This document shows positions 2,994 to 41,718 of a stretch of 64,000 nt of DNA, piece by piece. Origin of the DNA: Takakia lepidozioides (Eukaryota > Plantae > Bryophyta); contig CM060731.1 of assembly GCA_030704615.1 (NCBI GenBank), positions 81,220,001 through 81,284,000 of the forward strand, given 5' to 3'. The translations under genes and the position numbers were made by a program. Numbering within the stretch: position 1 is the first letter of the stretch; each line of letters begins with the position of its first letter. The notes beneath the pieces were generated by a model. That model worked only from the letters and a program-made list of their open reading frames with translations. It was not told the DNA's origin and ran no database searches.

Positions 2994-5465
2994 AACTAAT
3001 TGGAATGGTGTATACTTAGTGGTGACTTTATAGGAAGTCATGTATGACCACAAAGCTGTCAGCAGCTTTGTATCCCAATCCGTTCTGTTTGCATTGACTA
3101 TCTTAGCCAAGATAGTGCATAGTATTTTGTTGGTAGCCTCTGCCTGCCAATTACCCTGTGGGTAATATATTGTACTCTTTCTATGCACAATCATGAACTC
3201 TTTAGTCAACAACTCAATGGTCTCATTCATGAAGTGACTTCCCTGATCACTGATAAATTCTAAGGGACAGCCAAATCGTGTAAGTATGTTCTCGTACATG
3301 AACCTTGCTGTGGACTTGGCTGTGTTGTCCCTCAAAGCTTTAGCTTCCACCCACTTCGTAGTATAATCAGTGGCTGTAATTATGTACCTGTTCCGTGTAT
3401 TCTTGGCTGGTGGGTTAATCGGTCCAACAAAGTCTAGTCCCCATTTCTGAAATGGTTCCGTAGGCATTGTAGGATGCAAGGCCATCCTTCCAGATCTCTG
3501 CAAAGGTCCTAGCCTCTGACATTCATCACAACTCTGACAATACTCGTGTACATCTTTGAACAAAGTAGGCCACCGGTAACCTGCGAGTAGTATCCTCCTA
3601 CTGGTAGTCTCTTCTCCAAAATGACCTCCAGCCACTCCTTTATGAACTTCCTCCAAAACTTTATTTACTTCATGGTGGTACAAGCATCGTTTTAGTACTC
3701 CATCAGGTCCTAGCTTATACATTCTGCTTCCTACCATAGTATAAGGTAAAGCTTTGATAGCGATTCTCTTCCTCTGCTCCTTACCATAACTAGGTGGGCA
3801 CTGACCATGAGCAAGGTAGTATCTGATTGGCCACTGCCAATCTAACCAGTCATCTGCACTTCCCTGCACCTCCACTGCAAAGAGACTCGCATCTGGTAAT
3901 TGATCATCTATCCCTGTGGCTGGTTCTCCTGTTGATAACCGTGACAAGTGATCCGCCACAAGATGCAATCTCCCAGGCTTGTAAACAATCTCGAACTCAA
4001 ACTCGTGCAAGATTATCAACCATCTTGCTATTCTTCCGCTTATCAGAGGTTTGTTTACCAAGTATATCAGAGCCTGGTGATCCACATAGAACATAAACTT
4101 CTTGCCCAACAGGTAATGCCTGAATTTCTTCACTGCATAGATCATTGCCAATGCTTCTCTTTCCGTTGTGCTATAGTTCCTTTCAGCACTGTTCATCAAT
4201 CTGCTAGCATAGTACACAGATGAATCTATATTTCCTGTAACATTCTGGGCTAACACTGTTCCCAACGCTTCTCCTGATGCATCGCAGTGAACATGAAATA
4301 CTACATGCCAGTGAGGGTTAATCAGCATAGGTGTAGTTGTTACTGATAGTGTAAGTTCCTCAAACGCCTGCTGACATTCAGTTGTCCAGGCAAACACTGC
4401 ATCTTTCTTCAGAAGCTTGCTCAATGGTGCTGCTATTTGTGCATACCTTTTGACAAATCTTCTGTAATAACTGGTTTGCCCAAGGAATCTCCTTAGACTT
4501 TTAACATTCACTGGTGGTGGAGAGGCTTTAATGGACTCTGTCTTTCTGGGATCCACAAGAAGTCCCTTCTTACACACAATGTGTCCCAGAAGCACCCCCG
4601 AGTTCACACAGAAAGTACACTTCTCTGGATTCAGGCCCAGACCTCTCATCCTGCATCTGGCCAGACATAACTCCAATTTATGCAAGTGCTCATTCTTAGA
4701 GCTGTACACACTGAAATCATCCAAGAATACCTGCATGAAATCATCCAGATACTCATGAAAAGATTCACTTATCACTCTCTGAAAGGTCGCTGGTGCATTA
4801 CAAAGTCCAAAGGGCATGACTTTGTATGCATAAGCCCCCCAGTCTGTGATGAAAGCTGTTTTCCCTTGGTCTTCTTCTGCCACTTGCACTTGATTATAAC
4901 CACTGAAGCCATCCATGAATGAGTACATCTCATGGCCTGCCACAGTGTCTAATACTGCTTCTGTGAATGGCAAAGGAAAAGGATCTTTCTTCGTACAAGC
5001 ATTCAGCTTCTTGTAGTTCACACATACTCTTAGTTTGCTATTCTTCTTGGGAACTATAACAATGGGTGACAACCAAGTTGTATACTCTATTGGGTATATA
5101 AACTTAGCCTCAGCCAACTTCTTAATCTCTTCTCCAACCTTCTGTGCGTAGTTGGGATTCATTCTGTACCTCGCCTGCTTGATTGGTACTGACCCTGGTT
5201 CCAGTTCAATCTTATGCTGACAGACTTCAGGTGGTATCCCTTTTAAATCCTCATAACTCCAAGCAAATACATCTCTGTATTTGATGAACAAGCTTTTAGC
5301 TTCTTCAAAGAACTCCGGCTCCAAATCAGCTCCTACTTTCACCATCCTCGGTTCCTCTTTAGTTCCCACATTCACTTCCCTCACTTGCTCATCAGCTGTG
5401 ATTGTCCAACCAGTCACCACTTCATCCTGTAAGCTCACAGTGGCTGGTTCCTCTAGGATTTCCAT
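2991..5465 (-). pseudogene. pol: pol: reverse transcriptase, RNase H, integrase (C-terminally truncated)
   Basis: MPFGLCNAPATFQR and FLDD (RT); HCDASG and NYSTTEREALA (RH); H..GGHFG..C..C zinc finger, GLDFVGP, SDQGSHF and QAEATNK (INT). Confidence 0.95.
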
Positions 5466-7030
5466 TTCTCATTCTCTTTCTTCATAGAAATGTGATGGGT
5501 AACTGCTGGTTGGTGTTGCTGTCACTACACCACAGCAGATACCTCTTAAACAACTTAGGCTTTCCAGCCGCATCTCTGCAACCTGCTCCCACTCTGGGTG
5601 TGCAGCAAATAGGGTAGCTTCCTGCTCCTCATCCAGTCCTCCTCTCCAGTCATACTCTCTGACTCCTCGAGGTCTTCTTGTAGCAGGTAATCTACTAGAT
5701 TTCTTTGTGGTAATTTGTATCTCGTGTATCCCATTATGCACGGTTAGTAACTGAGAATTCCAGTCATGGAATACCCTGGCCTGTTTCAGCCACGGACGTC
5801 CCAATAATAAGGAGTAAGCCTCCATGACTTCATCCATCTTCAACACAGTTACTGTGATCATAAAGATCATCTTCTGTATCTGTATCTTAACTCCTCTTAT
5901 CAATCCCAATGGCTGTACACTTCTTTGATCTGCCATTGTTACTGTAAATGGGGCTGGTTTCATGTTACTTAGACCAAGCTTCTTCTTTAATTGGTCTGTC
6001 ATGATATTTACTCCAGAACCTCCATCTATCAGTACATCAGTTAGTTCTGTGCTCCCAATTCTCAATTGGATTACTGGCATAGAATCATCAAAGTCCATGA
6101 CTGTTTCTCGCCCTTCCGGCTTCACATTATAACTCGTCACCTTGCTGTTCAGGTCTGTGTTTCCTGTCTCCTGGGCAATTCGATTGATTGCTTGATACAG
6201 CCTGTGCCTACAATAAGGTGCCACAACTAATAGCTGTCCAATGGTAATTTCTGCTTTGGTCTGGCATATTACTTCAGCCAAAGTCTCTTCATTACTTTGC
6301 ATGTCTGCATCTTCTTTCTTCCTTTCTTCCTCACTCCCTTCTTCTTCTCCATCAGAATCAGAGGAATCTGCCACAGGAATATCAGTACTCTTCTGCATTT
6401 CCCTTATAGTATCTGCCACTTCCTTGTGCAGTTCCTTCTCATCTTTCTTACTTCTTGTTACTATCATTGTACTTGCTTCTGGTACAACACATGGCCTAAC
6501 CATGTGAGCTGCCACCACTGGGCCCTCATTCACAGGAGCTCTCATCTCATTCTGGTGTCTTATCCAGAATGAACAGGCTGCCCTGCGATGTCCTGGCTGA
6601 TTACAATAGTAACATAGTTCTTCACCATTGGGTCCTTGCCCTTGGTCTGTTCTTGGATTATTTCTATAATCCTGATTCCCGGGCTGGTAATTCCCCCTTG
6701 GATTACCCTGATAGTTGCCTCTGGAATTCCCTTGGTAATTCCCTCTTGAATTACCTCTCCCTTCCATGCCATTGTTATAACCACCAGACCTACCATAGTG
6801 GTCCTGATCATTGTTTCTTCTTGGCTGGGGCTGCACCTGATGCACCCTTACTTGCCTAGGTTCTCTTGCAGCTGTCCTTCTGTTGTAGTAACAATTCTCA
6901 GTAGAATGGTTATCCATTTTACAGATAGTACAGTGTTACTCGTTCATGTGGCATTCTGTGGTGGTATGGCCTTCATTCTGGCACTTTGCACACCATACAC
7001 CCTTCCTCCAATGTGTTGCAGCCTCTGTGG

Positions 7031-7430
7031 GTGCCGCAATAGTAATCCAACTTAGTACGAGAGGAACCGTTGATTCACATAATTGGTCATTGCGCTTGGT
7101 TGAAAAGCCAGTGGCGCGAAGCTACCATGTGTAGGATTATGACTGAACGCCTCTAAGTCAGAATCCATGCTAGAAGCGGCGCTTTCTACCTCCCCGGTTG
7201 TTACCCGACTACTAGTAGGGGCGCCCCGTGCGTCCCCAAAAGCATGTGTCGAGAGCCTCCCCCGAGGTCGCGGAAGAAGCGGTCCTCGGGCGCTTTGCAT
7301 TGCAATTTCAGACGATCGGGGAGATGAATCCTTTGCAGACGACTTAAATATGGGACGAGGTATTGTAAGTGGCAGAGTAGCGTTGCTGCTACGATCCACT
7401 GAGATTCGGCCTCCTGTCCCAACGATTTGT
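7031..7430 (+). rRNA. 3'-terminal fragment of nuclear 25S/26S (LSU) rRNA, orphan copy
   Basis: Contains the sarcin-ricin loop AGTACGAGAGGAACC, GGATTATGACTGAACGCCTCTAAGTCAGAATCC, GCAGACGACTTAAATA and the terminal GATTTGT. Confidence 0.95.
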
Positions 7431-7655
7431 TATCAAACTATTTTTTGGGGAGCAGACGGTCGAGGGTCTCGGAGACGCAAGGCCCCGAAAATCGCCCAAG
7501 TCCTTTTCTGGGGACCACACGGTCGAGGGTCCCGAATGGTCGAGGGTCTCGGAACCGGCCAAGTCCTACCGCGGACAGCCTCCACCATTGTTGGGGGCTC
7601 CTCTCCGGGGGTTCAGGTAAGGGCGGGACAGTCGAGGGTCTGGGCCCTCGAGCGT
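7431..7655 (+). other. Probable rDNA 3' ETS/intergenic spacer carried with the LSU fragment
   Basis: GC-rich sequence directly after the LSU end with four GTCGAGGGTC repeats; gag resumes at ~7656. Confidence 0.65.
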
Positions 7656-9723
7656 CGGGCTGCTCAAGATTTCTTCCAATCTTTTTTCATAGTTATCCCT
7701 CTTCAACTTTTCCTTCCTCTTACTCTTTCTTTTTAGTTCTTGCTCTTCTTCTTCATCTGACTCATCCTCAGAGTCCTCATCATCATTTTTCTCTCTCCTG
7801 AGCATTCCCAATTGCTCAATTCTGTTTGCAGTTTCAAATGCCTCATCCACTGTATTATGGGGTAACATATCCACTTTCTTTTGCAACTCTGGTCTTAGTC
7901 CACTCACAAACCAAGTCTTCTGTAAACCGGGTGCTGGTACTGCAGCCAGCTTTTTCATCATCAATTCCATCTTTTCCATATACTCCTCAACAGTTTCATG
8001 CTTATTTTGCTTTAACTATTGTAAACTTCCATACAATTCATCTTCAGTTTTACTTGTCCTGAACCTATTTCGAAATGTTGTACTCAAGCCATTCCAGGTT
8101 AGGAAATGATTATCAGGGAATCTTGCATACCATTCACTTGCTTTCTTGATAAGTGAACAAGGAAACAATCTCATCTTGGCATCATCGCCATTCTCATTGT
8201 TCACTATACACATGTGCTCAAATTGGCTAATGTGTACATCGGGATCCCCTTTTCTTGAATATATTGGAAAGGGTGGTTTTGCCCGTGTTGGTTGTAACGC
8301 CATCTGTGGCCCTACCTTCTGCCCACTGACAGGTGCTGGTACCCTTGCTGGTGCTGGTCCTTCTGGACCTTTTGTTTTTGTGGTGGATCTTCCACCAAGT
8401 GGTGGCCCTTGAGCACTCCCTGCTTCCGGCCCCACGATATTCACAGTATTCCCAGCTTCAGTTGCACTACTTCCCACACTCCCTGTCCCCCCAGAGCCAG
8501 ATCCAGGCAGCCCGCCTGATCCCCCTGAGCCGACACCTTCGTTGGCCTGTGATCCAAGTGCTCCTCTTGATCCAGGTCCAACGGGTTGGGATGTCCTGGT
8601 TGTAGTCTCAACCTCAACTGTTGGGTCTACTTCTTCATATTCTTCCTCTTCCAATTTCTTCTCTCTATTTTCATCCTCCAAGTTCTGCCCTTGGGTTTCT
8701 TCTTCACTCATGTAACTCAACTGTAATGGTGTTGGAGAGTCTGAACTCTCCGTTGGCTCTACCACATCCTCTTCTCCTTCTTCACCTTCCGCTTCAGAAA
8801 CTGGAGTTCTTGCTTTTGGTGTTTCATGCCAACTCTTATCAAAGATTTCTGTCAAATCTTTTATCCAGGGATGTACCCCAGATCTTTCACCTCTTGATTG
8901 ATCTTCTTTCTGTACCAATTCCCTTAATCTTTCTTGCAAAGAAACAGAAGGAGTGGCATCCAACTCTAGTTCTTCCGGTATGGGTGATGTACTCTTTGAT
9001 CTTAATGGTGTGAGAGGTCCAGATGATTCCCCTATGTCTATTCCTCTCTCCCAAAGATATGGATAATTAGCTTTCAGATAGCTTTCTCTTTTTGCTGAAT
9101 ATCTCTGGCGTCTAGCTTCTCTTTCATCACTCATGTCCCATGTCTTTCATTTCTTTTAATGTGGCAATAACCAAAACTCTCTTTTGTAATATCTCTCGTA
9201 TATGCCTGGGTTTCTTTCAAGCTTCAATGCACCCTTGGTTATACTTGAAGTCTCCGTTACCATATAACCATATGGCAAACAAGTCTGGAAAGCTGTTCTT
9301 GGTGTGAGTTTGATCCACAAAATATCCTTTGGAATCCAATTCTTTACCAGTACAAGCTCTTCATGAATATGAGTATAAACATTCACCTTTCTTTCTTCCC
9401 AGCCTTCAAACTTTATTTGCTTAATGGATAGCAATGCTATCACATAAACCAATGTTGGTAACCAACGTGCTCTTCCTCTACAGGCTACCTGATAAATCTT
9501 TATCACTCCTTTCTCCAGACCCCATTCCGGATCAGCATCATGCACTCGCTTAAGAATATTTTCTTTACAACCGTCTGGCAATTCCAAGAACCTTTGAAAG
9601 AATTGTTTGGACAATCTTTCTTCCTTCGTTCCACAGGGAATTTGATTCACTTCAAATTCTTTAATGGTCCAACCACCATGATCCCACCAGATGCCTATCA
9701 CATCTGGTTGTTCATGACTCAGT

Positions 9724-9743: not shown

Positions 9744-10748
9744 TGTCGCGCAGCTTTTACTCACCCATCCCTTCGCTATCCGAGGCGGAAACTCCAAGAT
9801 AGAAGAGTTGGAAATCTCTAAGTACTCAGCCCGCGCAGAACAATCAGTCATGACCTACAGCTAGTGTATCATGGGGGTGTTTCCTATTTGTTTCCCTTTC
9901 AGCATTCATGTTAGCTACCTTACCATTGATAATTAAGTATCAGTTTGCTTCATCAATCTATCGGATTCCATCAACTCATCAATTCATTCCACAGCTTCAC
10001 TCAGATCTCTCTACACAGTGTGATTGTATCGTATAAGTATCAGATTATGATTTATCAGGTATCAGGCCGAAGCCATTATGTCTCTAATCTGCTCTACAAT
10101 ATCACTACAGCTTTGCATATAACAAGCATCTACTGATCATCTCTCCTCCTTCACCGTGCTCTCCATCTTTGCTTCCGTTCTTCCTCTCCGCCCGATCCCC
10201 TCTCATGCATAACCAAGAACTCCCCAGAATAATCATCCTCCCCCCAAAATCCCTGCTTCTCCCTTCATCTTCCTACCCGTGGCTCTAACCGTTTCCCTCA
10301 CTAACCGTCGTCCGTGAACTAACATGTTCCATTTGCAAGTGTTGTTCCCCACAGTCGTTCCCTGTTCTGCTCTCCGTTCCCTATGGTCGTGACAGCTGTG
10401 TCAAGCTGTGACTGGCTGTGTGAAACTGTGACGGGCTGTGACTGGCTGTGCGACTGTGTTTGGCTGTGTCGGGCTGTGACTGGCTGTGTGGCTGTGTCTG
10501 CTGTGACGACTGTGACGGGCTGTGTTGGCTGTGTCGGCTGTGACGACTGTGACGGGCTGTGTTGGTTGTGTCGGCTGTGATTGGCTGTGTGGCTGTGTTG
10601 GCTGTGTTGGCTGTGACTGGCTGTGTAACCCTCCTCTACAGTGCGCTGTTGTCACCCCTAAGGCTCCTGTTGGTCTCAGTCTGTGCAAAAATTAAGGGTA
10701 CCCTGCAGATCCCGTATAAGTGTCTAAGTCCCAGACAGTCCTCTAACA
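9744..10748 (-). repeat. 5' LTR (~1.0 kb) containing a GGCTGTG/CACAGCC simple-repeat tract at ~10390-10627
   Basis: TG..CA ends, bounded by the PBS on one side and the interrupted CACTA transposase on the other. The partner LTR is not in the window. Confidence 0.75.
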
Positions 10749-12179
10749 GCCCACCTTGTGCTACATCTTGTGGATGAATTGGAGGTTTGTGGTCCTGTTA
10801 GTTCACGTTGGATGTACCCCATCGAGAGGTACATGAAAAATTTGAAGGGATATGTGAAGAGCTATGCCCGGCCAGAAGGTTGCATGGCTAGCAGGTATTC
10901 TCTTGATGAGGCTCTTGGCCTCCTCACAGAGTACATGGCTGCATTTCCAGGAACTCGTAGAAGGGTCTGGGATTCCAACGAAGAAGAAAAGTGTTGCGGG
11001 AGAAGTATTAGAGGGCGAAGGAACTCCAAGGAAACTGTCGGCTGAGCTTCGGGCCAGTGCACACGACTATGTGCTTCACAACACGGCGTGCATGAGACCG
11101 TTTCTGAGGTAAGTATACGTCATTTATTTAGCTTCACATGCTAACTCTGGGGTATTTTTCCGGATACAAAATTCGCGCATTCTCAATTTTCACTCAGCCT
11201 CTTTGTACATATTATGGTTCTGACTAAGTGTGAATTGAGTATGACCAGACTTTATGATATTGAGAAGGCCACCATAGAATCAGCCAGAGCCGAATTTCGA
11301 GCCACATACAGCACCCAAGGGAGAAATGCACACCAACGCACCGTTCCATACCCCGAAAACATATTGCCTTTGCCTGCTTTTCATATGTGGATACAGTTGG
11401 CAGTACAAAATGTTGTTTCAAGAGGAGCAGCGTATGATGCAAATATTCGTCATCTGTGTAAGCCACCAGGGTTTGTTGCTCATTCATTTCGCTCTATGTG
11501 GGCATACGGAAATCACTACAGAGTGGTGGAAACAGGTGTGGTTGATTACCATGTCACATTCGACTCTGGGGTTGCACAGATTTTTGCCGAAGAGTCAACG
11601 GGAAGGGGTGTGGATGGTAACCCTGTCATGAACCAGCTGCAATATGTTGGTGTTGTTCGTGAAATTTTACAGCTTCAGTATGGTGCTGTCACTCCTGTAG
11701 TATTCATATGTGAATGGGTCAGAGCAAGCTTGACAAGTCGCAACCGCACCATGAAGAAGGATGAGTATGGTTTCCTACTCGTGGACTTCGATCACATGCT
11801 GCCACCGGGAGATGAACCATTCACATTTCCATGGCAAGTCGAGCAAGTTTTTTTTGCAGATGAGCCCTCCAACATTGGTAACTGGAAAGTAGTACTTCAG
11901 AAGGAGCCGCGCTCACGGCGCGTGGTACATGATGTCACTGGTGTCAGCTTGGGTGAGAATGAGTCATGCATAAGGATGCAAGTGGCGGAGGCATTGGAGG
12001 ATGTGAATCCCAACACAGAATTTGGACCTTCAACGACCCTTACCGAAGCTGAGATGGCTACTATTGCTATGATGAGGCCCCTACGAAGGGACGAACCATG
12101 GCACCGAGATAGTGAGGATTGCAACACTGACCATGAGTGTAGTGAAAATAGTAGCGATGAAGATGACTACATTTGGTAA
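10749..12179 (+). pseudogene. CACTA TnpD-like transposase C-terminal half (DUF4218/DUF4216-like)
   Basis: HLVDELEVCGPVSSRWMYPIERYMKNLKGYV...RPEGCMA; frameshift near 10990; intron ~11109-11248 (GTAAGT..CAG); DEYGFLLVDF, DEPFTFPWQVEQVFF and WKVVL. Confidence 0.9.
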
Positions 12180-12630: not shown

Positions 12631-15416
12631 CGGCCAACTCCCCCACTCCACTTGTTCTTTTTCCTAAAGCATGCTTTCTATTTTCCCTGTGTTCAGATTG
12701 TGGGGGTTGGGTGCAATGTGTTGGGGATGTACTTCTTTATGATGTTTGTTTTGGTTTGGTGTAGTCGGGGGACAATCTGCACAACAAGTCACATGTTGGA
12801 TCTGATGGGCATTGCAACTGTGGATGGTGATTCACATGTCTTCCCCACTAATGGGACCCCTCTGTTCATGCTTGGGATTTGGCAAGTTCGTAAACCCCCA
12901 CTTTTTTGACTGTGTGCTTGCAGGTCACATGTGCTGCATGGGACAGAGCCATTCAGTTGGCTACAGGTTCAATTCCTCCGCACATGACAGTATGTGGCCC
13001 TATTTATGATGGCTTTGACTTACTCATAGAGTGGGCTCGTGTGTTGGTTACTCTATTTTTGGCTTGTTTAAAAACCCTCACTGTGACAGGGATGAGGCTT
13101 CTATCATTGCTCAATTTTCCACTTGTGATGGTGGAGGAGAATGTTCATGAATCACAAGAAGGTCTATGGCACCTCGGAACCCATGAATTCAGAATCATGG
13201 AGATTCCAGATTCATATAGCCAAAGTTGATCTTTTGCTTTGTGATTTCTCTCTGTTTCTCATGTTTGTGAGATTCGGTGCTTCATCCCTCTGCATGTACC
13301 ACCCCGCTTTGTCATGATTGCGAGTTGGAATTGTAGAGATGACCTTTCTTTGAAAACATACATACTTTGTATGGGGGGCTTGAGGTGAGCAATCCAGAGA
13401 CCATTATGTGTTACAGACACTAATTACCAGTCCACATTATGGGTGTGTACTTTGCATGGATTTGCAACCCCCCACTATTTGGTCCTTCCGAAAATAAAAC
13501 TCTTTCTTGCTAGAGCTGGAAGCTCATGGGCGCTATGCCTTCAACCATCCAGATGTGCTGTTATTTGTTCTGAATGTGGACATCACCACATGTGCACTTG
13601 TAATTTTACCGCCCATTACCAAGTTGTTGCACCACACATGAAACAAAAGTATTATAGATTCATAAGCAGTATGGTTGAAAGGTCTGAGAAGTAGATAACA
13701 AGAGGCAAGCTGAACGTCGTACAGGGGACACTCAGTTTTTGACAGGAGAGGCCAGTTAAGTACCTAAACTTGAGGCAAAACCCAAAAGGATAATGTATGC
13801 AGGCTGAAATGTTGATAGTCTCTGCATTGCTACTGCTTCACCCCCAAACCATCATGGCCACAAGTACCAACGCTGAAAACTGAAGCAGAAACGTCATGCA
13901 TGAGACGATTGCGGGAAGCTACAGTGCATGAATCTACATTGTGGTGTATGTCAATGACACTGTGTATATCCTCGCTCACCTCGATCCATGATCACCATGA
14001 CATCGTGCTCATCTGAGAGGGCATGGAAGGCCAGTCAATGTGTACCATAGGGAGTAATCGTGGAGCAACGGGTACTTCTTGCCAACATATCGGAGCCTCT
14101 TATTGCTATTTCCAAGGCACCAAAAGTAGGCCATAGGCTCCTTCTTGTGGATGCCACTCTGACCCAACCAGTGGAGCACGACGATGATAGCTTTTTCTGC
14201 GCAGGCATTCTGTCCTGGTACACGTTCTTGGGCTGCCTTCTGATTTTTGACTTGAAGATCGAATGCGTGATTCCAAGCGCAACGGTGCTCCATGATTTCA
14301 TCCAGAATTGGCTGGTTTCGCAGACGCTTCTGCTCGACTTCGCGGTAGTGAGAGGCCTGTTTCCACACCTGCGATTGAGGAGGCATTCCTGCACACTTTG
14401 AAATGCTTTGCCGAGATAGAGAGTCCACTGGAGTGCAAAGCAAGCAGATGAAGGAAGCAGACGACATTCGGTAATGTGCGGGAACCACCTTGTCTGCCAA
14501 AGTGGACAATGGACAAGTCGCACGTAGGGAAATCATGCCTGTGCCTTTTCCAGCACATCGGTGGTGACTTGGCATTAGGGGCTGGTCTCACGGTGCATTT
14601 TCCACGCCGTATGGTCCATTCCACACTTCGTAATTAACATGCAGGAATTATGGTGTTGGTGAGATATGTAACTAGTTTTATTTTATTTTATTTTATTTTT
14701 TATAAATAAATGAAACAGGGAGGCCGTGGCATGGGACTTTATATGGGGAAAAAAATAAAACCCCCATGAACGCCATGAGAGTCACACACTGTAGTGCGAC
14801 CATCTCTTTGTATTTCCGAGGCCAGATTTCGAAGTTCGTGATTTATTTCGTTTGCAGCGGAGTACTAACTAAACCCATACACCACAATCAGTGGAAATAA
14901 TTGTATGTTCCCATTTCACACAGGTGTGTAACATGCCATGTAAACTAAGCCAACCCCTGCCATGCTCATGGCTGTTTTCACACCGTTCTTGCGTGGGGTG
15001 TGGACCACATGTGAGACACCCCACAGTTAGGGCATATTTAGACCCACACCTTGGCTCAGTGTACAGACCCGTGATAAAAGCCGTGGAATGTGCCAGGTGT
15101 GAGATGGCAGAGCCGTGGAAAAAGCCGGTTTCTCTTCTAGTGATTGTTCTCTTATGGTAAGGCTGGGTTGATGACCAGCAGACCATAGGAGTGCTTGCGG
15201 TGGATGCAGGTGCAAGTGCAGGTTTATGTTATGAACCTAGTAAATCTAAGCCATATGCTGCAACAGGTTCTCTACCCGGTTACCTTGTGGAAAGGGGGAT
15301 TAGAGACAGGTTTACAACAGGTGTGGTTGTGAGTTTTCATCACGGAGGTGCCACCAGTTGCTGAGGAGAGTACCGGTATGAGCACCAACGATACTAGTGG
15401 GTATACAAGATGAGGT

Positions 15417-17453
15417 GTGCGGTTTAGGCCACCTTCACCTTCAATGTCTTCTGAGGAAGGTTCAGATTCTAGAGGCACAAGGGCAGCGGCGACACCAGCA
15501 GCTACACCAACATCCCCAACTGCAAGCACTAGTAGTGGGACAAGTAAAGATGGAGCTGGGAAATCCACTCAAGCTCCTGCTGCAGCACCAGCACCTGTGC
15601 CTGCCTTTAACCTAGTTCTGGAGTTCTTCGAGGAGTTGAGGAGAAACTACCAGGGGATAAGGACAGAGAAATTGCGGAGCTTGCAAGAATTCCAGCGCAA
15701 GCCTACTGAGAGTTTGAGGGAGGCTTACACGCGCATGAGGCGATTGATAAATGTAACCCAAGGAGTTACGGAAGCTCAAGCAGTCCAATTTTGGTATGGG
15801 ATATTGGACAAAGAGCTGAGGAGAAGGGTGTGGGATGCAACTCTCCTACAAGTGAACCAACCCACCTTAGCGAACGTGTTTTTGCTGGCAGAGCGGATAG
15901 AGCTCAATATGGTGGAGGAGCGAGTGGTCATGGTGGGGTCTGGCAAGGAGACACAACGAAGCGGGGCTCCTAGCCAACAACAATCACTACCCCAACGTGC
16001 TCAAGGCAACAAGGGGGCTTAGGCGCAGCCCAGGGAAGGACAGAGAGGATCTCAATTACAGAGGTCACTTCCTTCATTCTTAGGCCAACAACAGTCGGGT
16101 GTGACATGTTGGGATTGTGGATGACCCCATGTTAAGAGAGATTGCCCGGAGAGAGGCAAAGGGTCGGCACAGGCACAGCCTACACAACTACAGTGTGGGC
16201 ATTGTGGCAAGTATGGGCATGAGGAGGCCCATTGTTATGACTTGCATCCTGAGCTACGGCCAAGCCAGTTCCAAGGGAACAATGGTGGCCGAGGACGAGG
16301 CAATGTAGTCCAGAGAAGTAGAGGAGGCAGAGGTCGCGGTGGAGGTCGTAACCAAAACCAGGGAGCACAAAGTCAAGGTCAAGGTCATGACCAAGGCATG
16401 GTGGATAGGCTTGCCCAGCTAGAGCAACGTCTTGCTACCATGGCCACTATGCATGTTGCGCCAGCTCCAAGGCCTGAGCTTCAAGCCCCACCTGCACAAC
16501 CTTCTATGCCTAGGGAAGACCAGATTGGTATGGGCTTCATGTGTGGAGCCGCACTTGCAGGACCATTGCATGTGGACTCTGCAGCTGCTGTCACTCAAGC
16601 AACAACGCGTGCTCCTGAGCCAAGAGAAGCAGATGTGGATTTTGATCCACAAAGGGGGGAAGCAAGTCAACAGACAAGGCTTCCACAGTCTTTCACATTG
16701 GCTGAGACAGTGCCAGTGGGTGGTGCTGCAAAGCAAGGTGCAGCCAGTACATTGTTGGGGGCGGCTACGGCTGTTTGCCAAGCTCCATTGTTTTCTGCAA
16801 TGACCATTGCAATGCCAAGGATTTGGCCAGCTGCTGTATTCAGACTAGCAACTAGACTATGTGAGAGTGGTGATGCATCGACACTATCTGTGGGGATAGC
16901 GGATAATGTGCAGTGCATGGATGCCCTGGACTCAAAGGTGAAGATAGCCATAGCTGCACCATGACAAGCGGCAGCTGCAAGGTTACATGAGTTGCCAGCT
17001 AGACTAGCCATTGAGCGTAGTATGCTGACTTCTGGGGTAGTCCTGGTGGACAATCAGGATGGTGTGTTTCAGTTGGGTGGCCCAGCCGGGAGGAGGTATA
17101 GGCCACTGCGGGTCTTGTTGGACTTGGGAGCACAGCCATTGATGTTGGGAAGAGCAGCAATTGCAGGCTTGGGCCTCACAGAGGCGGATTTGGAGCCTTG
17201 CCCTTTCCAAATTCAAACATCTTTGGGTGGTTCAAAGAAGGCGCGAGGGATTACACGCCATGAGCTCTTCATTCGATTGCAGCCGGATCATCCTATGGAC
17301 GGCTCAGTCATGAGAGCTAAAGCCATCGTTACGGACGCGATGTCCTATGATGTGCTTGTTGGTGGGGCTGTGTTGTACCCCATGGGCTTTACTTTGGACT
17401 TTTGGGAGGAAACGACATTCTACAGGCCGGAATGGCAGTCAGGGGATGGTTGA
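15417..17453 (+). pseudogene. gag: gag and aspartic protease
   Basis: FQRKPTESLREAYTRM; knuckles CWDCG*PHVKRDC and CGHCGKYGHEEAHC; protease LLDLGAQPLM (DSGA in copy 2) and YDVLVGG. Several in-frame stops. Confidence 0.85.
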
Positions 17454-17832
17454 CGTGCACTGCTCCCAGTGCGGTTTATTGGGAATGTAGCGGTGGATCA
17501 TAGGAACATGATGCCCACCTTGGCTGCATTCTCAAGGGTGGTGGCTTGGGGTGGTGAGCTCTCGGAGGGCAATAGCCATGCAGATGATAGGCCACCATCT
17601 GATGAGGACAAGCAATTGGCATACAAGGCTGAGTTGCTTCCTCATGTTCCTATGCATAGCTCACTGTGGAATGCAGTTGGGGATTTGAAACGAGTAGCAA
17701 GCCAGTGTGTGTAGCAAGCATGACAAGGAGGCCTTTCCACCGGTAGGTGAGATGAGTTCAGTTACATCACCTGGACCTCCTCAATTAGCTCCATTGGACA
17801 CAGTGCCTATTATCTGGCAACAACCTGACTCA

Positions 17833-18800
17833 GGCATTTGTTTGCTAGACCTGTTTGGAGGCATGAGCACTGGGCTTGCAAGGAGTGTTGCAAGCAAGAA
17901 TCAAAGTACGCAAGTACTTGTATGTGGAGAATGATGAGATTGCTTGGCGTGTTTCCATGCGCCATGTTGTCTTGCTCACACATCAGTATCCTGAGTTGTT
18001 GCCTCTCTCAGCAATTCAAGGGTATCAAAAGGCCTTGCCAGCAGACATTACCTTGCTGGGGGCGGATGATTTGGACCGGCATGGTGCCATTGACTTGGTG
18101 ATAGCTGGATGGCCTTGCCAAGGACACTCTCCCGCAGGTCATGGGAAAGGCTTGCATGATGCACGATCGCATTTGTTTTGGGAGATGTTGTGAGTGTTGC
18201 GTGACTTGCAGGTGAGGCAAGTGCAACCTCCAGCTTACATCTTGGAGAATGTTCCTCTCATGGGGGATTCTTGGGCCAAGGTTATGGCCAGTGTGCATCA
18301 GATCCGGTCATGGATTGAACCAGCTGTATTGTTGGATACAACTGTAGTGGGTTCACGGGCACATAGGCCTAGGTTGTGGTGGACCAATCTTGCACCACCA
18401 GAGTTGATCAAGAGAGCCTATGATTCCATTCAACGGCCACCCAACCTCACGGTTGAGGGCATTTTGGACCAAGGGAGGCAACCACAGAGAGTGCAACATG
18501 ATGATCGTCCACCTTTGGCGGTGGTCAATCGAGTGGGGCAGCCACGTACAGCTTTGCTTACGCTCATGAGCTTTCCCTCGTCTCATGCTTTTCGAGACAA
18601 TGGTCCTGGGTTGATTTGGGACAGTGTGCTATAACAATTGGTGGAGCCCAATGCGGATGAGCGAGAGCGGGCAATAGGATTTGCCACGGGCACTACAGCT
18701 GTGCCAGTTCTGTCAGAGGTATCACGACGCCAGATGTTGGGTCAGGCAATGGATCTCAATTGCTTGACATGGGTCATTGGCTTGTGTATGGCTGAGCAAC
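17833..18800 (+). pseudogene. C5 cytosine DNA methyltransferase domain, DNMT3-like
   Basis: Motif I LLDLFGG, II YLYVE, III ADI, IV DLVIAGWPCQGHS (PCQ 18113-18121), V LF, VI ILENV (18245-18253), VIII AHRPRLWWTNL, IX ERERAIGF, X RRQMLGQAMD. One frameshift near 17880 and stops at 18191 and 18632. Confidence 0.93.
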
Positions 18801-19249
18801 GGAGATTGCAAGCATTAGTGGCTCCTTCCGCTCTCCCATTGGATATTGCACCCTCTCTGCCAACCGGGGCGGTGGAGGCAGTGAGTGGGGGCGAGCACAG
18901 GATCATGGGGTACAAACACCCATGGCAGATGTGGGATGAGATGCGCAAAGAGAGAGTCATTGGATCTCTCAAGCAACAGTATGAGGAGTGGGGAGAGCCA
19001 TACACTGAGGATCAGTTGGAGGACAAGGTGGCTAAGGTTTTTGAAGAGGTTGAGAATGTTTCTTGTTCAGAGGATGTTCTCAAGGTGGCTATGGCGGAGC
19101 AAGTGGAGGCTACGCCACAGTCAAAGTGGGCGGACAAGGCCCAAGAGGTTGCTATCTAGCAACCAAAGGATTCGTCTCCTACCTCCAAGCCTGGTGTACC
19201 CAAGGTTGCAGTCACTGAGGACAATTGGGAACCAGATGTTGGACCTACA

Positions 19250-22060
19250 GTCACCGGAGGAGAGAGACGGAGGATCCAGCGATTTCTAAAGACTTATAGA
19301 AATTGCTTTGCCTTCGGTTTGAAGGATTTGGGGAGTTTGAATGGTCAGGAGATTCGTATTGATTTGGCAAGTGACACGCCAATCTTTCAAAGGCCCTACC
19401 GGTATAGTGACATGGAGAGGTCATTGATCCAGTCACGGACTATGGAGTTGTTCGAAGCTGGATTGGTGGAGTTGTCAGGCGGGGAGTATGCCTCGGCAAT
19501 GGTGATACCAGCTAAGAAGGATATCTATGGCAATTGGACAGAAAGAAGGATATGTGGGGACTATCGTCCTGTGAACCGTCAGACTAAGTCCGATAGATAT
19601 GCCATGCCAACTCCAGAGGAGATCTTTGATGCCATTGGGCATACAAAGGTGTTTAGCACATTGGACTTGCGATCCGGTTACCACCAGTTGCCAATCAAAG
19701 AGGCTGACAAGCAAAAGACGGCATTCTGGGGGATTGACCAACATGGGAAGGATTGCTTGTACCAATGGCAATTCCTACCGTTTGGGTTGAAGAATGCTCC
19801 TGCAGAGTTTCAGAGGGTCATGGATAGGATTCTTGCGGGGTTGAGCGCTTGAGAGCGCACGGGTTGAAACTGCACCCCGGAAAGTGCAAGTTCTTCCACA
19901 ATCAGATTGAGTATCTAGGCCACATGATATACCCTGGAGGATTGGGTGTTCAACAGACAAAGGTGGAGGCCATTGCATGCATTCCACGCCCCATGGATGT
20001 GAGCAGAGTTCGTGCTTTCATGGGATTGGCAAACTACTATCGACGGTTTGTCAAGGGATTTAGCAGCATTGCAAAGGCTCTTACCAAGTTGACCAAGGTG
20101 GGTCAGGAGTGGCAGTGGGAGGAGGAGCAGGAGGAAGCCTTTGAGGAACTCAAGGCTCGATTGACTTCTACACCTATTCTGAGGTAGCCTATTCGGAGGC
20201 GGCCTTTCCAGCTACATACGGATTGGAGTATGCTGGGGATTAGAGCAGTGCTCACACAGGTGGATGATGAGGGAAGAGAGTTCATAGTGGCATATGCTAG
20301 CCGTTCGAACAATGATGCCGAGGCAAAGTATAGTTCCTATGAAGGGGAGTGTCTGGCTGCAGTATGGGCAGTGGCACATTTTAGATGCTACCTCTATGGC
20401 AATCTCTTCACTCTTGTCACGGATCACCAACCATTGAAGTGGTTGATGGAGTCAGACAAGCTTACATGGAAGCTTGCACGGTGGGCACTTTTGCTTCAAA
20501 AGTACGACTTCCAGGTGGTGCATCGAGCCGGAATAGTCAACCGGGATGCGGATGGATTGAGTCGCAATCCATGCACAAGTGAGCTTGATGATACAGGAGC
20601 TCGTTGGCATGATGAGACGGACGAGGAGATGGTGCCAGGATGGCACGCATCTGCCTTTTTATACATTCTAGCAATAGGAGCTCAAGCTGGTCCATCCCAT
20701 GTGATTGGTCATAGAGATAGTGTGCATGACGATCCAGAGATCAGTGAGGAGCTTGGTGGTGCTAAGGATGTACATGAAGATGCAGTAGTGTTGGCCTACC
20801 TTCGTACTGGAAAGACAGCAGCCAGTGTGACTACTAAGGAGAGAGATCGGATCCTACAACGAGCCAAGAGGTTCAAGTGGGAGGGGACTCACCTACTCCG
20901 AGTATGGGAGGATGGACGAGTGAGGATTGTGCCTCATCCAACACAACGAGCGCGATTGGTACGCCATGCCCATGAGGAGTTGGGACATTTTGGGGTGCGG
21001 CGCACTCATAGTTTGCTGCAATGACAGTATTGGTGGCGGGGCATGTACACGGATGTGCAACAGTTAGTGGCAAGGTGCATGGTGTATGATAGAGTGCGGG
21101 CTTCTTTCAATGCACCTACTCCACAATTGTATCCTTTACCCATTATGGGTTTGGGGTATAGTTGGAGTCTTGACTTCGCAGGCCCATTGCCACTGACGAT
21201 TCGCCATAACAAGTATGTGTTGGTGATGGTGGAACATTTCTCCAAATGGATTGAACTGGTGGCATTGCCTAACAAAGCAAGTGAGGGGGCTGCGTATGCA
21301 TTCTTAGATCGAGTGCTTAGCCAATTTGGTGCTCCAGCCAAGGTACTCACGGACCAGGGGAGAGAGTTCTTGGGGGAGTTTCAGGCTTTGTGTGAGCAAA
21401 CCTTGATAGATCACCGCACTACTTCTCGGGATCATCCCGAGGCCGATGGCTTGGCCGAGAGGGTTGCGCAAACAGTCAAGCGAGGCTTGGGCAAGTATGG
21501 CTTGCAGAAGGGACACTTGGGAGATTGGGACCTTCAGCTACCTTGGTTGGCCATGGGCTACAGGTTTAGCAAGCAAGCATCACTTGCCTCGTTCTTGCCT
21601 TATTTCCTTCTCTTTGGCCGAGAGCCAGATTTGCCTGCATCTATTCGCAAGGAGACTACAGTAGTCCTCAACCTTGATGATCCGGATGTGTGGACATAAG
21701 CATGTGCCCAACGGGCAGAGTTGTTCAAGAGAGTCATGCCTATGGCTTTTGAGAACCTTGCTATTGCCCAACACCAAGACACATTGAGGTACGCCACTAT
21801 ACGTGGAGGGGGATATCGGCCAGGTGTTCGGCATTTCCATCCTGGGGACTATGTGTATCTGTAGCAGACAGCGCCTACGACCTTGGATGTCATAGCAGGT
21901 CGTGTGATTCTAAGGGTCCGGGAGGTGTTGCCTTCAGGAGTGTTGATTCTGGAGGGTCGAGATGGCATGGTATGGAAGTACCATGTGCGCAATTGTGCGC
22001 CATGTCACCTTCCACATGTGGATGGGATGATAGATCACAACCTTGCAGTGGTATCTACAG
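19250..22060 (+). pseudogene. pol: pol: RT (YIDD segment deleted), RNase H, integrase
   Basis: [23 protein letters not shown]; HTDWS, YSSYEGECLA, TDHQPL; HEELGHFG, SLDFAGP, TDQGREF, GLAER. Confidence 0.93.
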
Positions 22061-22068
22061 GGTTGCGT

Positions 22069-22217
<149 letters not shown>

Positions 22218-22468
22218 TGGGGCATGACAGTGGTGAGGTTGACAAGTGATCCGAGGTCTAGCTAACGGGAGTTCAATGTCATGGACACCCAATTGAAGCC
22301 ATGGATTGCAGGAAGGCGAGTAACGCTACTTTTGCACCCGGCCTCTTGGTCTATTGCCTTCAGATACTGGGACTTGGGCGATTGATGACCACGCGATGAT
22401 CTTATTGGGATGGATACTTGTCAGCTATCCGGTGTTAGAGGGACCTAATCACCAGCTAGGGAGGCGAT

Positions 22469-23006
22469 TGTGGTATAGCTTTCTAGGATTGTGTGCTTAG
22501 ATTGTCTGGTGGACAGCGATGTATGTTGTGGCACGATGCTTAGGTGCACGACAGCTGTCATGGTTTTAATCATGGTTATCTAGAATTACCTACTTCTAGT
22601 TAACTATGACATTTTAGATATTTATATTTATATTTTGTGTGTTGGGACTTCATTTGGTCTCACATGCCAAGTGAGGTGTCGAGCCTCACTTGGGACATGG
22701 GGATACGTTTTCCCCTTGTGAGGATGGAGGAGGCTCATCTTCTTGTAGTTGAGCCTCCATGAGCCTCTCTCACCTCCATAGCTCTAGGTATTGAGAGGAA
22801 GTGTGGTGAGGGCTTTGTAGGGTGGATTCCCTTAGCAAGGGTGCCCTTGGCTTGACTTAGTTTATGTGATTGAGTGGATTCATGAGTGGAGGTTTTCCAT
22901 TATGTTCACTTCCATTATCATTGTGGTATAGCTTTCTAGGATTGTGTGCTTAGATTGTGTGGTGGTCAACAATGTATGTTGTGGCACGATGCTTAGGTGC
23001 ACGACA
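22469..23006 (+). repeat. 3' terminal repeat region, A-B-A layout
   Basis: 85-bp direct repeats at 22469-22553 and 22922-23006, preceded by purine-rich AGGGAGGCGA. Junction CACGACA-GC-TGTCATG at 22547-22562. Confidence 0.85.
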
Positions 23007-29738: not shown

Positions 29739-31367
29739 TGTCACGCACCTCACTTCGGTAAGTTCCCCTTCAAGTCATAGTTGCTAGCTTGATGCGCGCG
29801 CCTAACTCCCAACCTGGCCGCCGGACCAACTTGGAGCTTCGGCTGCTCACCGGGGCATAACGGTCCCCTTTTGATCTCCCAAAGAACCCTCCACCAATTT
29901 GGAACCAGCGGGAATTCCCTTTGGTAGTTGGCAGTCCGGAACAGCTCCCCACTCTTTGGTCGCTTTCCGGCTCGCTCGCTTACTCACTAGTTTTTGGTCA
30001 CCAACGGGCTTGCACCGTTCTCGGGGTTACTACTCCCCTTGTATATACTTCTGTAGCTGTCCGCGGGGGTTTCACAACCAGCCATGCCATTTTATGGCGA
30101 ACCACCACGAAAACCCTCGACTCCCGGTGATGAGTCGCGGTGAGTCTTGGCCCACTCACCACGGCCCCTATGGACCGTGATGAGTCCCAAGACTCCCCAC
30201 GACTCCCACCACGAGGTCTCCGCCCCCATGGTGAGTCCTATGCCACCCCCACTAAGTCCCGCTAAGTTACCACCACCCCTTGTGGAGCCACCCCCACCGC
30301 AACCCGGTGTGCGGGGCTCCACCTAGTGAGCGCCTCCGCCTCCTTGAGTGCCTTGGGCACTCAAGGGTGCTTCAGCACCCCATACCTATCGCTGCGCTGC
30401 CCCACCACAGGGGCAGCCCCTCATGTGTCCCGACCCCCTGTCCTCAAGGCAAAGGGCCGCGACACACACCCCTACCAACAGGGAGTCAATGTCCTCATCA
30501 ACTTGTCCATTTTGTAGAAACGAACATCCAAGTTGTGGCGTCCCACATCAAGGAGTTTGTTTCCGTACCATGGCGTCCCATGGCAAAGAACCAAACCCCA
30601 CACTTGACTCTACTCTCCACTAGCTAGTTCGGCCGACTTCCTCCAAGTCCCGGCCAGGGGTGGAGCCTCTCAGCTCCTCCCAGTGCACTCTTCTTGGTCT
30701 TCTTCAAGGTCAAGGAACGATCCTCCCCGAGGATCGAATCGCCTTACTGCAACAACATTGCTTGCGACCGCTCATGATGCCGTTTTTGGCATCACCTTGA
30801 GCAAGGGTTCACCTCGAACCCTCTTTGACTAGGAAGATAACCTTGAACCAACCGTGCGCCCCAATCACTACAATTGGGTCCGCCTTGGAATGCTGGCCTG
30901 AGGTACGGGAACACGCCGAAGCCGCACTACGACTTCGTCCCGAGGCTACACGATTATAGTACGTGAATGGAAGCACGTAGCTTCCGCGTTAGACCGCACT
31001 ACAAGGCAACCCCCTCGGTAGCGCAGTTATAGTACGCGCACGCGCCAGGTGCGCACTAGCACGTGAACTCCCAAAGAAGGCGCAAGTTTCCTTGCCCCTT
31101 GGATGGGAGTCACCCGATTTCGGCACTGCGCAAACACACGATTAACCCAATTTACCTCTCCCACTTTTGTAACCTAGCATGCATTCTACACACTAGCCAA
31201 CCATACCATGCATCACCATTCCAAACAAAATAGGAAGCACAACATTTTGAAACATTTCATTTAAAGCAAATTTTGTACAATACAAGTTTTTGCAATCGGA
31301 TTTCTGAGCTAGCTAAGCCGGGCTAAGCATGCATTTCCTCCCCCACGCTCCAAGGTTGATGTCCCCA

Positions 31368-34300: not shown

Positions 34301-34753
34301 TGAAAGAAGGTTTATTCGCCCTCCCACGGGTTTGGGCGTTTCCGACACTCGTAAGATCTTGCCACCATTCCAACATGGCAGCGTGACTACTCTCTTGCGG
34401 CCATCTATGACCGCTCCAGATTTGCTCAAAAAGGTCATCCCCAAAATGAGATCCACTCCATCGATCTCGCAGATGGTGAAGTTCTCACGTCCCTCCCAAC
34501 TTCCCAGTTGAAGAGGAACATCGAATGCCAACCTTGTTTTCAGTTGTGGTTCTCCTTTAGCAGAACGCACCTCAATAGAGGCCCCCACGTCACTTGTCGG
34601 GAGTCCCAACTTTCGCGCCGCCGCCGGCGTCATGAAGGAGTGCGACGCTCCTGTGTCCACCAACAACGACACGTTAGTTCCAGATATTATCCCATCCACG
34701 AACAATAACTGACTCTTTTTACGCAGGGCGCCAGTTTCCTGATACAACTCACA
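31368..34753 (-). pseudogene. pol: Outer chromovirus pol: PR-RT-RH-INT-chromodomain, with frameshifts and an internal deletion in INT
   Basis: LVDTGAS, YIDDIL, HTDASDF, SMDFM, SDRDPKF, EYEVEAVLKSR...YLVKWKGY...SW. Confidence 0.92.
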
Positions 34754-34758
34754 AGAAT

Positions 34759-40700: not shown

Positions 40701-41713
40701 CAAGCAATGTTGTTGCAGTAAGGCGATTCGATCCTCGGGGAGGATCGTTCCTTGACCTTGAAGTAGGCCAAGAAGAGTGCACTGGGAGGAGCTGGAGAGG
40801 CTCCACCCTTGGCCGGGACTTGGAGGAAGTCGGGCGAACTAGCTAGTGGAGAGTAGAGTCAAGTGTGGGGTTTGGTTCTTTGCCATGGGACGCCATGGTA
40901 CAGAAACAAACTCCTTGATGTGGGACGCCACAACTTGGATGTTCGTTTCTACAAAATGGACAAGTCGATGAGGACATCGACTCCCTATTGGTAGGGGTGT
41001 GTGTCGCGGCCCTTTGCCTTGAGGACAGGGGGTCGGGACACATGAGGGGCTACCCCTGTGGTGGGGGCAGCGGCAGCGATAGGTACGAGGGGCTGAAGCA
41101 CCCTTGAGTGCCCAAGGCACTCAGGGAAGCGGAGGCGCTCACTAGGTGGAGCCCCGCACACCGGGATGCGGTGGGGGTGGCTCCACAAGGGGTGGTGGTA
41201 GCTTAGTGGGACTTAGTGGGGGTGGCATAGGACTCACCATGAGGGCGGAGACCTCGTGGTGGGAGTCGTGGGGAGTCTTGGGACTCATCACGGTCCATAG
41301 GGGCCGTGGTGAGCGGGCCAAGACTCACCGCGACTCACCACCGGGAATCGAGGGTCTTCGTGGTGGTTCGCCATAAAATGGCATGGCTAGTTGTGAAACC
41401 CCCGCGGACAGCTACAGAAGTATATATAGGGAGTAGTAACCCCGAGAACGGTGCAAGCCAACTAGTGAGTAAGCGAGCGAGCCAGAAAGCGACCAAAGAG
41501 TGGGGAGCTGTTCCGGACTGCCATCTACCATAGGGAATTCCACTAGGCCCAAATAGGTGGAGGGTCTTTCGGGAGAGCGAAGGGGGACCGTTATGTCCCG
41601 GTGAGCAGCCGAAGCTCCGAGTTGGCCCGGCGGCCAGGTTGGGAGTCAGGCGCGCGCATCAAAGCGAGTAACTATGACTTGAAGGGGAGCTTACCGAAGT
41701 GAGGTGCGCGACA
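34759..41713 (+). mobile_element. Chromovirus, inner copy (same family, opposite orientation)
   Basis: LTRs 34759-35485 and 41002-41713; PBS TGGTATCAGAGC at 35488-35499; PPT GGTAGGGG before 41002; TSD AGAAT at 34754-34758 and 41714-41718. Confidence 0.95.
35536..40096 (+). pseudogene. Inner chromovirus gag-pol with chromodomain
   Basis: CFNCGEPGHMAKKC, LVDTGAS, YIDD, RH, INT and chromodomain; frameshifts near 35760, 36950, 37570 and 38830, and a stop at 38891. Confidence 0.93.
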
Positions 41714-41718
41714 AGAAT

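Follow-up and report, generated by a model that had tools for sequence, protein, structure and literature searches.

Two retroelements that carry a methyltransferase domain of the DNMT3 type are the closest described systems. In KnitGypsy-Dnmt3 of Klebsormidium nitens, the protein domains are those of Gypsy elements, the repeats are DIRS-like, and the DNMT is under purifying selection (de Mendoza et al. 2018; PMC5890265). In SymbioDIRS-Dnmt3 of Symbiodinium, a related enzyme that methylates CG de novo in yeast sits in a retroelement with A...B-A-B repeats and a tyrosine recombinase (PMC5890265). Here, we analyze a stretch of 64,000 nt of the moss Takakia lepidozioides (assembly GCA_030704615.1, contig CM060731.1, positions 81,220,001–81,284,000, forward strand; hereafter the window, with positions counted from its first letter). 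It contains a dead, 5′-truncated copy of a Ty3/Gypsy-type retrotransposon family in which a DNMT3-type methyltransferase ends the first reading frame. We find it reasonably probable, from the sequence features taken as a whole, that the methyltransferase is made in excess by means of a leaky stop, that it likely methylates the element's own complementary DNA (cDNA), and that integration would proceed from a circle.

In the window element, gag, protease, C5 methyltransferase, reverse transcriptase (RT), RNase H, integrase, and a PHD finger follow each other in that order on the + strand, between 15.4 and 22.2 kb. The methyltransferase (17839–18808) displays motifs I, IV, VI, VIII, IX, and X in linear order, between protease and RT: LDLFGG (motif I, 17839–17862), GWPCQ (18107–18121), ILENV (18239–18253), AHRPRLWWTNL (18359–18391), ERERAIGF (18659–18682), and RRQMLGQAMD (18725–18754). 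A first-pass annotation, made from the letters alone, had assigned this motif set to a DNMT3-type C5 methyltransferase broken by one frameshift and two stops. All the motifs are where it had placed them, the frameshift lies just after motif I, and the stops are at 18191 and 18632; the assignment itself is borne out by sequence and by predicted fold. With the stops read as X, the match of the window domain to the PF00145 model is significant (45.3 bits vs. a cut-off of 22; E 1e-11), and its best PDB matches are DNMT3A (E 1e-8). In a search with a profile built from 57 element domains, DNMT3A/B/C come out on top (E 2e-26 to 2e-19, with DNMT3A at 2e-26), ahead of DRM (2e-15 to 2e-11) and M.HhaI (9e-10). 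The catalytic Cys, the Glu of motif VI, and the Arg of motif VIII are invariant in all 57 aligned domains. For the intact domain of one relative (L059), the predicted structure has a pLDDT (predicted local distance difference test) of 95.9, and the model recovers DNMT3 entries alone among the matches listed by Foldseek. Its superposition on DNMT3B with VIA-align covers 270 residues (Z 29.4, root-mean-square deviation 2.6), with DNMT3A/B at about Z 29 vs. Z 25 for the best non-DNMT3 enzymes, which are bacterial. Matches in the protein atlas are generic PF00145 clusters only. By similarity, motif order, and predicted fold, the domain is of the DNMT3 type.

The domain is not peculiar to this copy. 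In an RT-anchored scan of metagenome contigs (80 loci kept of 401 confirmed), the methyltransferase is present 5′ of RT in 44/44 loci that also have gag or protease, and in 52 of the 55 RT starts preceded by 700 nt or more. Two of the three exceptions are matches to an unrelated upstream RT, and the third is a copy with the segment from gag to methyltransferase deleted. In L109 and L112, the copy keeps the 5′ repeat A (described below) and the leader, with gag, protease, and methyltransferase all deleted; the domain is not lost alone. Between subfamilies, the ratio of nonsynonymous to synonymous substitution rates (dN/dS) of the methyltransferase is 0.13–0.21 in the eight pairs with measurable dS (three further pairs are saturated), and that of RT is 0.05–0.26 in the three measurable pairs. 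Within a young dead subfamily, the values are 0.41–0.93 for the methyltransferase and 0.31–0.72 for RT; these reflect decay after insertion and are uninformative on selection. The RT tree (RT matches below 200 profile positions excluded) and the methyltransferase tree (rows picked by hand, element and phage enzymes only) contain the same clade around the window copy, with SH-aLRT (Shimodaira–Hasegawa-like approximate likelihood ratio test) values of 99 and 98 and a similar inner order. The methyltransferase is an integral and conserved trait of the family, under purifying selection, rather than a later insertion. The first-pass annotation had likewise taken it as belonging to the element, and none of the outcomes it had named as refuting this is observed: the HMM match is significant, relatives carry the domain, and the ratios between subfamilies are well below one. 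The occurrence in every such locus and the congruent trees also agree with this.

That annotation had also put the methyltransferase inside one polyprotein with RT. The place between protease and RT holds, but not the shared open frame: the methyltransferase ends the first open reading frame (ORF1; gag, protease, methyltransferase), before a conserved amber stop followed by CAA CCA (19157–19165, + strand), a predicted readthrough signal ahead of ORF2 (RT, RNase H, integrase, PHD finger). This TAG (19157–19159) and the C-terminal PHD finger (22060–22208) had not been noted there. In both window copies (a second one, on the − strand, has the same TAG CAA CCA at 60385–60377), the stop is in frame, 23 codons 5′ of the RT start. 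Clustering of the loci at 82% RT identity gives nine clusters, seven in the RT clade of the window copy and two outside it, and the stop occurs 17–25 codons 5′ of RT in all seven. In five of these (7 loci), TAG is followed by CAA CCA, CAA CTA, CAG TTA, or CAA TCA, all CAR YYA. The codons encode QP, QL, or QS; at the nucleotide level, the six bases keep their pattern even though the second residue varies. Among the distinct decay stops of the same loci, 0/511 are followed by CAR YYA and 5/511 by CAR YY. In the Sphagnum-type cluster, 35 of 42 loci share this position of the stop (34 with CAA CCC and one with CAA CCT); two of the other seven are too short and five have a different first stop. One locus (L060) reads TAG TAG CCA and is ambiguous. 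All 21 long proteins with gag, protease, and methyltransferase that were picked by hand terminate 47–165 residues past the domain. ORF2 remains in frame with ORF1, and both window copies, as well as L059, L061, L062, and L063, lack an ATG after the stop. The two clusters outside the clade (1 and 6) have no conserved stop and an open frame between methyltransferase and RT. Loci L119–L138 (cluster 1) and L071 are distant subfamilies (∼44% RT identity) devoid of the stop.

The sequence CAR YYA after UAG is the readthrough signal of tobacco mosaic virus (TMV), where readthrough amounts to ∼10% (PMC2754532); candidate readthrough in rice gypsy elements is cited in the same paper. The six-base context is thus the same as in TMV and stands, as there, ahead of the polymerase; in the window family, the stop follows gag, protease, and methyltransferase. 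With an amber stop in this conserved context, the methyltransferase is therefore likely made at the level of Gag, in excess over RT and integrase.

The ends of the element depart from those of a conventional long terminal repeat (LTR) retrotransposon, which is what had been proposed at first. There is no LTR pair: a 364-nt block A stands between two 87-nt repeats B, and the 64-kb window nowhere contains a 5′ copy of this block. On the + strand, a polypurine tract (22455–22466; a G-run is at the same position in all triples compared) lies directly 5′ of repeat B1 (22467–22553), which ends with CACGACA. The first bases of block A2 (22556–22919) are TGTCATG; its counterpart in relatives is a repeat of the 5′ end and contains a TATA box and the predicted self-primer. 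Repeat B2 (22920–23006), 95% identical to B1, forms the right end (CGACA) of the element, and in relatives the same CGACA is followed by a 4-bp duplication. The B1/A2 junction (22546–22563) reads CGACA-GC-TGTCA, a near-palindrome made of the right end, 2 nt, and the left end, and is predicted to be an internal integrase attachment site. It is conserved in the window copy, clusters 0 and 1, L061, and L062. Of the extent first proposed (15143–23006), the right border is the true end of the element, but 15143 is not an end, because the depth typical of the family begins near 14.9 kb.

A self-comparison of 35 sequences shows A...B-A-B repeats in five full-length loci. Mapped over all loci (L104, where the contig ends, and L102, where B is interrupted, are excluded from the counts), blocks A and B give 11 distinct insertions that end in B-A-B, plus the window copy, and 15 that end in a single B. 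The family comes with the ends A...polypurine tract-B-GC-A-B or A...polypurine tract-B, without two complete direct LTRs; the length of B is 87–176 nt. TG...CA termini and a 4-bp duplication are present in 8/8 distinct full-length insertions (four of each form), the TG start being a one-base variant in two and the duplication being perfect in six and with one transition in two. Of 13 distinct triples, 12 have a 2-nt spacer at the B1/A2 junction (CGACA-NN-TGTCA). The length of the A2/B2 joint differs in four of 12, with extra bases in those four. Five subfamilies retain the CpG of the right-end motif.

In 15/15 copies compared, no TGG start of a tRNA primer-binding site is found after the 5′ block A (A1). 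Instead, the 11–12 nt after A1 are complementary to a stretch that starts 31–33 nt past the TATA box in A. Three variants of this pairing occur, with compensatory changes between them; at least nine of 11 positions match in 11 of 17 copies. The complementarity of this predicted self-primer agrees with the self-priming criterion used for chromoviruses (Neumann et al. 2019; PMC6317226). Cluster 1 has the same split repeats with a self-primer of its own. In L095 (3243–3878), a fold-back copy consists of B-GC-A, the primer site, and the reverse complement of A from the predicted primer end to its start, ending in CA; the two arms are joined exactly at the predicted primer duplex. A 10-nt complement between A2 of the window and position 15008 is about what chance would give.

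The stop, the permuted ends, and the self-primer together fit, as far as sequence can tell, an integration from circular cDNA cut inside the LTR. Low-rate readthrough would leave the Gag-protease-methyltransferase protein as the major product, which would enter the particle in Gag-like numbers; we consider this highly probable. We give the same high probability to a minus strand primed, as in Tf1-type elements, by the first 11–12 nt of the RNA paired with the sequence right after A, and to a plus strand primed at the polypurine tract. Ordinary LTR reverse transcription would then yield a linear cDNA with B-GC-A at each end, so that the TG and CA ends used by integrase would sit in the middle of the unit, at CA-GC-TG. 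A two-LTR circle opened at one CA-GC-TG would give A-internal-B-GC-A-B, able to transpose again, with the A2/B2 joint as a circularization scar, and a one-LTR circle would give A-internal-B, a dead end. These are the two forms observed, and both have 4-bp duplications. This location of the integrase site inside the LTR unit seems probable to us, and there is a precedent in the foamy-virus integrase, which cuts palindromic two-LTR junctions (PMC1180852). The protease would release the methyltransferase in the particle, where it could act on the extrachromosomal cDNA, most likely at CG by analogy with SymbioDIRS-Dnmt3, and a new copy would arrive marked like the repeat DNA of the host. Methylation in this phase appears somewhat favored. 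A broader scenario is only tentative: an ancient green-plant lineage of integrase-bearing retrotransposons may have moved its attachment site inside the LTR, with only two-LTR circles yielding copies able to transpose again and a leaky-stop DNMT3 methylating the cDNA, and the CpG of the attachment junction may control cutting and shield the junction in integrated copies. The link between methylation and cutting that the conserved right-end CpG suggests is speculation.

Several observations weigh against this scheme, and they bear on the alternatives to its separate steps. The trees are quick searches in which deep nodes do not resolve. A late insertion of the methyltransferase, or a fortuitous likeness in a single dead copy, could be argued from the bad decay of that copy and from a Pfam match that spans only motifs IV–VI; against a whole, conserved domain found family-wide, and refuted by 44/44 loci, this explanation has practically no probability left. 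As to the stop, the largest subfamily (the Sphagnum type) has CAA CCC, which differs from the consensus by one base, and an ATG after it, and some Marchantia gene models (P0010 and P0019) join both parts across the stop region. Reinitiation, splicing, or an internal promoter could account for the expression of ORF2, with the stop as the ordinary end of ORF1. The lack of an ATG past the stop in both window copies and the four other loci, the maintenance of ORF1 and ORF2 in one frame, and the six-base pattern conserved despite a changing second residue make this improbable, and we retain readthrough. At the ends, the window copy lacks the 5′ end, and the primer site and target duplication are read from relatives, of which six of 17 are decayed or deleted at the self-primer. 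Eight of 12 A2/B2 joints are of equal length, which is fewer scars than random end-joining would suggest, and single-B copies can arise by B-B recombination after insertion. Ends of the DIRS/PAT type would explain the majority of equal joints by a templated joint: the RNA would run through B2, the A/B joint would be inherited, RT would circularize by template switches, single-B copies would be later recombinants, and integrase would still cut the B/A junction. The repeat layout is the same as in DIRS (PMC5890265). But the element has ordinary LTR priming sites, with a primer site immediately 3′ of A1 and a polypurine tract immediately 5′ of B1, and these predict a B-GC-A terminal unit; four joints have extra bases, and single-B copies are as common as B-A-B (15 vs. 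11) although B is short. We see this as a possible but unlikely route compared with circles opened inside the LTR unit.

As to the function of the methyltransferase, the observed/expected ratio (o/e) of CpG is 0.39–0.53 in the two window copies vs. 0.25–0.27 in two ordinary Gypsy elements of the window; a third ordinary Gypsy is at 0.90–0.97, and the intact relatives of the element range over 0.28–0.74. CpG depletion was rejected as a sign of self-methylation, being no stronger than in two of the three ordinary Gypsy elements. The Klebsormidium enzyme was inactive in yeast, a result its authors call inconclusive (PMC5890265). The methyltransferase might be kept for another role, acting in trans on integrated copies or host chromatin, or mainly as a DNA-binding part of the particle. 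The absence of an element-specific CpG loss speaks for this, as do the two different positions of the domain in related elements (see below), which fit a freely released module, and the de novo action of plant DNMT3 on heterochromatin (PMC6453930). The invariant catalytic and motif VIII residues in 57/57 domains run counter to it, and a position at the end of Gag-protease would favor packaging with RNA. On balance, another role is rather unlikely, and methylation of the element's cDNA is the reading we keep.

The window family shares with KnitGypsy-Dnmt3 the Gypsy domain set, an unrearranged DNMT3-type domain under purifying selection, and a DIRS-like repeat layout, and probably has a common origin with it. 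The comparison is by description, not by sequence. In KnitGypsy-Dnmt3, the DNMT is in the ORF of RT and RNase H, whereas a conserved stop stands between them in the window clade; readthrough, self-priming, target duplications, single-B copies, the PHD finger, and land-plant hosts do not figure in the accessible part of its description (PMC5890265). Three Klebsormidium RTs, which may or may not belong to DNMT-bearing elements, group among PHD-bearing relatives and are not sister to the window clade. SymbioDIRS-Dnmt3 has in common with the family a DNMT3-type domain and A...B-A-B repeats but integrates, as described, with a tyrosine recombinase (PMC5890265) instead of a DDE integrase with 4-bp duplications. 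No tyrosine recombinase match was found in the element proteins, where rve and the integrase zinc finger were found. Split direct repeats A...B-A-B are the DIRS/Ngaro-like feature of the family, and the DDE integrase is what separates it from DIRS/Ngaro. Of the traits of Ty3/Gypsy elements, the order gag, protease, RT, RNase H, integrase, and the DDE integrase are there in the window element, and TG...CA ends with a short duplication and a polypurine tract in relatives, but two complete LTRs and a tRNA primer site are absent; of the end features, the window copy itself shows only the right end and the polypurine tract. Among chromoviruses, Tf1/Sushi and Tcn1 have the Ty3/Gypsy order and a self-priming predicted from complementarity just past the 5′ repeat, but they possess a full LTR at each end and a chromodomain (Neumann et al. 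2019; PMC6317226), in place of which the window family has split repeats, a PHD finger, and a methyltransferase. A Pfam scan of the relative P0146 gives no chromodomain after the integrase; a PHD finger is there (PF00628, E 2e-9). Gypsy-7a_cRei of Chlamydomonas, likened here by description, is an active Gypsy with a PHD finger and LTR subparts in a figure legend, and, unlike in the window family, no methyltransferase is listed in the accessible text (bioRxiv 10.1101/2022.06.16.496473). The host DNMT3 of non-flowering plants has the same type of catalytic domain and a linear motif order, with DUF3444 at its C terminus (Yaari et al. 2019; PMC6453930), whereas a Pfam scan of an intact ORF1 (P0066) finds PF00145 and gag only, and no DUF3444. 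Troyka, considered as a split-repeat element, was rejected as a parallel; it is an animal lineage with ordinary LTRs and CG...CG ends (PMC12440569, accessible part).

The nearest named relatives come from liverworts and Sphagnum. The occurrence of such elements in land plants, raised by the first-pass annotation, is backed by proteins of Marchantia, Calypogeia, and Sphagnum. A first protein search gave 61 longer proteins, with Marchantia and Calypogeia on top (64%–68% identity) and Sphagnum lower; a search with Pol added relatives in Riccia, Closterium, and Klebsormidium. At E 1e-30 or better, 202 clusters (50% identity) match; among the best 150 of them, 98 have retroelement domains beside the methyltransferase and 52 have that domain alone. 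Intact frames of gag, protease, and methyltransferase are annotated as hypothetical genes of Marchantia polymorpha, with five of 1278–1281 residues among 15 cluster members listed. These five (P0005, P0066, P0067, P0073, P0074) are ORF1 of the element; the Marchantia genes are Mp4g09160, MpVg00370, MpVg00540, Mp5g06330, and Mp5g06860, two of them on the V chromosome, judging by gene ids. In a second architecture, the methyltransferase lies between RNase H and integrase; this arrangement occurs in P0284 and P0422 (Scenedesmus), P0385 (a Chromochloris gene id), P0046, P0050, and others, and is whole or partial in at least 71 of the best 150 cluster representatives; P0385 also bears a G-patch. 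It forms one clade in both trees, nested among the enzymes of the upstream type when rooted on phage enzymes, which suggests, as read from these trees, one capture and a later move. In viral contigs, the RT query gave 0 loci, another query one distant locus, and another 57 loci with weak matches (E 1e-9 or worse); no close viral source was found.

The presence of the methyltransferase alone extends the finding of 2018; the additions here are the stop and, at the ends, the self-primer and the permuted repeats. In the open literature (subscription journals and Repbase being outside the scope), no land-plant report of such elements was found, nor, with subscription journals and the supplementary figures of 2018 likewise outside, anything on readthrough, self-priming, or circle-type ends in them. 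The accessible parts of PMC12344493, PMC10952607, PMC9516144, and bioRxiv 2021.11.30.470311 mention neither such elements in land plants nor the stop or the ends. A high-copy family may have stayed undescribed because its ends defeat programs that look for LTR pairs.

What methyltransferases do in retrotransposons has been a question since 2018, when they were described in hosts that do not lend themselves easily to experiments. With intact frames in the model plant Marchantia polymorpha, activity and target become testable there. Provided that the ends are interpreted correctly, this would be a natural family in which circular cDNA, generally seen as a dead end for retroelements, is the productive substrate of integration.

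The window copy itself is dead. Along its coding frames are 13 in-frame stops (12 decay stops and the conserved TAG) and several frameshifts; the protease triplet is altered, and a deletion runs through the catalytic region of RT. On the + strand, a remnant of the 5′ leader (14898–15416), without upstream A, begins where the depth of sequencing run X1 rises from ∼400–600 (bin 14502–14852) to 147,000 (bin 14853–15203); the 5′ A repeat and the primer site are absent. At this truncated edge, 744 bases (14154–14897) are missing from contigs of two runs, in which 14153 is directly followed by 14898. Parts of the element are also covered by runs X9 and X10, which may be RNA. Gag (15417–16400; PF03732, E 1e-4; 54% in tblastn to residues 135–357 of a Marchantia gag) has apparently lost its N-terminal part and keeps, on motif reading, two zinc-knuckle-like motifs (16107–16145 and 16194–16235). 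The aspartic protease (17037–17450; PF13650, E 0.021; 57% to the Marchantia protease region) has DLG at the active site vs. DSG or DTG in intact relatives. RT (19226–19914; PF00078, E 6e-14) lacks ∼27 internal codons including the YxDD region. RNase H (20197–20505; PF17917, E 1e-33) and a DDE integrase follow, the latter with HHCC region and core (20938–21627; PF17921, E 6e-15; PF00665, E 4e-14; D, D, and E motifs at 21169, 21349, and 21436). The PHD finger, found with tblastn from that of P0146, is frameshifted.

The second decayed copy of the family (59543–64000, − strand) is 71%–79% identical, comprises gag, protease, methyltransferase, and RT, is interrupted by an N gap of ∼500 bases, and ends at the window edge. 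Other elements surround the two copies. At 2991–9146 (− strand) lies another Gypsy with an open pol frame of 825 codons and strong CpG depletion (o/e 0.26). Two Gypsy copies, ∼96% identical and in inverted orientation (29739–43690), with LTR-like repeats and a tail labeled chromodomain-like by eye, are nested in a further Gypsy, split between 27.1–29.7 kb and 43.5–46.3 kb. The frame at 10740–12179 is presumably a CACTA-like transposase and that at 53460–55250 one we take to be hAT-like, both from their motifs. Arrays of ∼51-bp repeats with short internal inverted repeats occupy 51931–52435 and 55977–57130.

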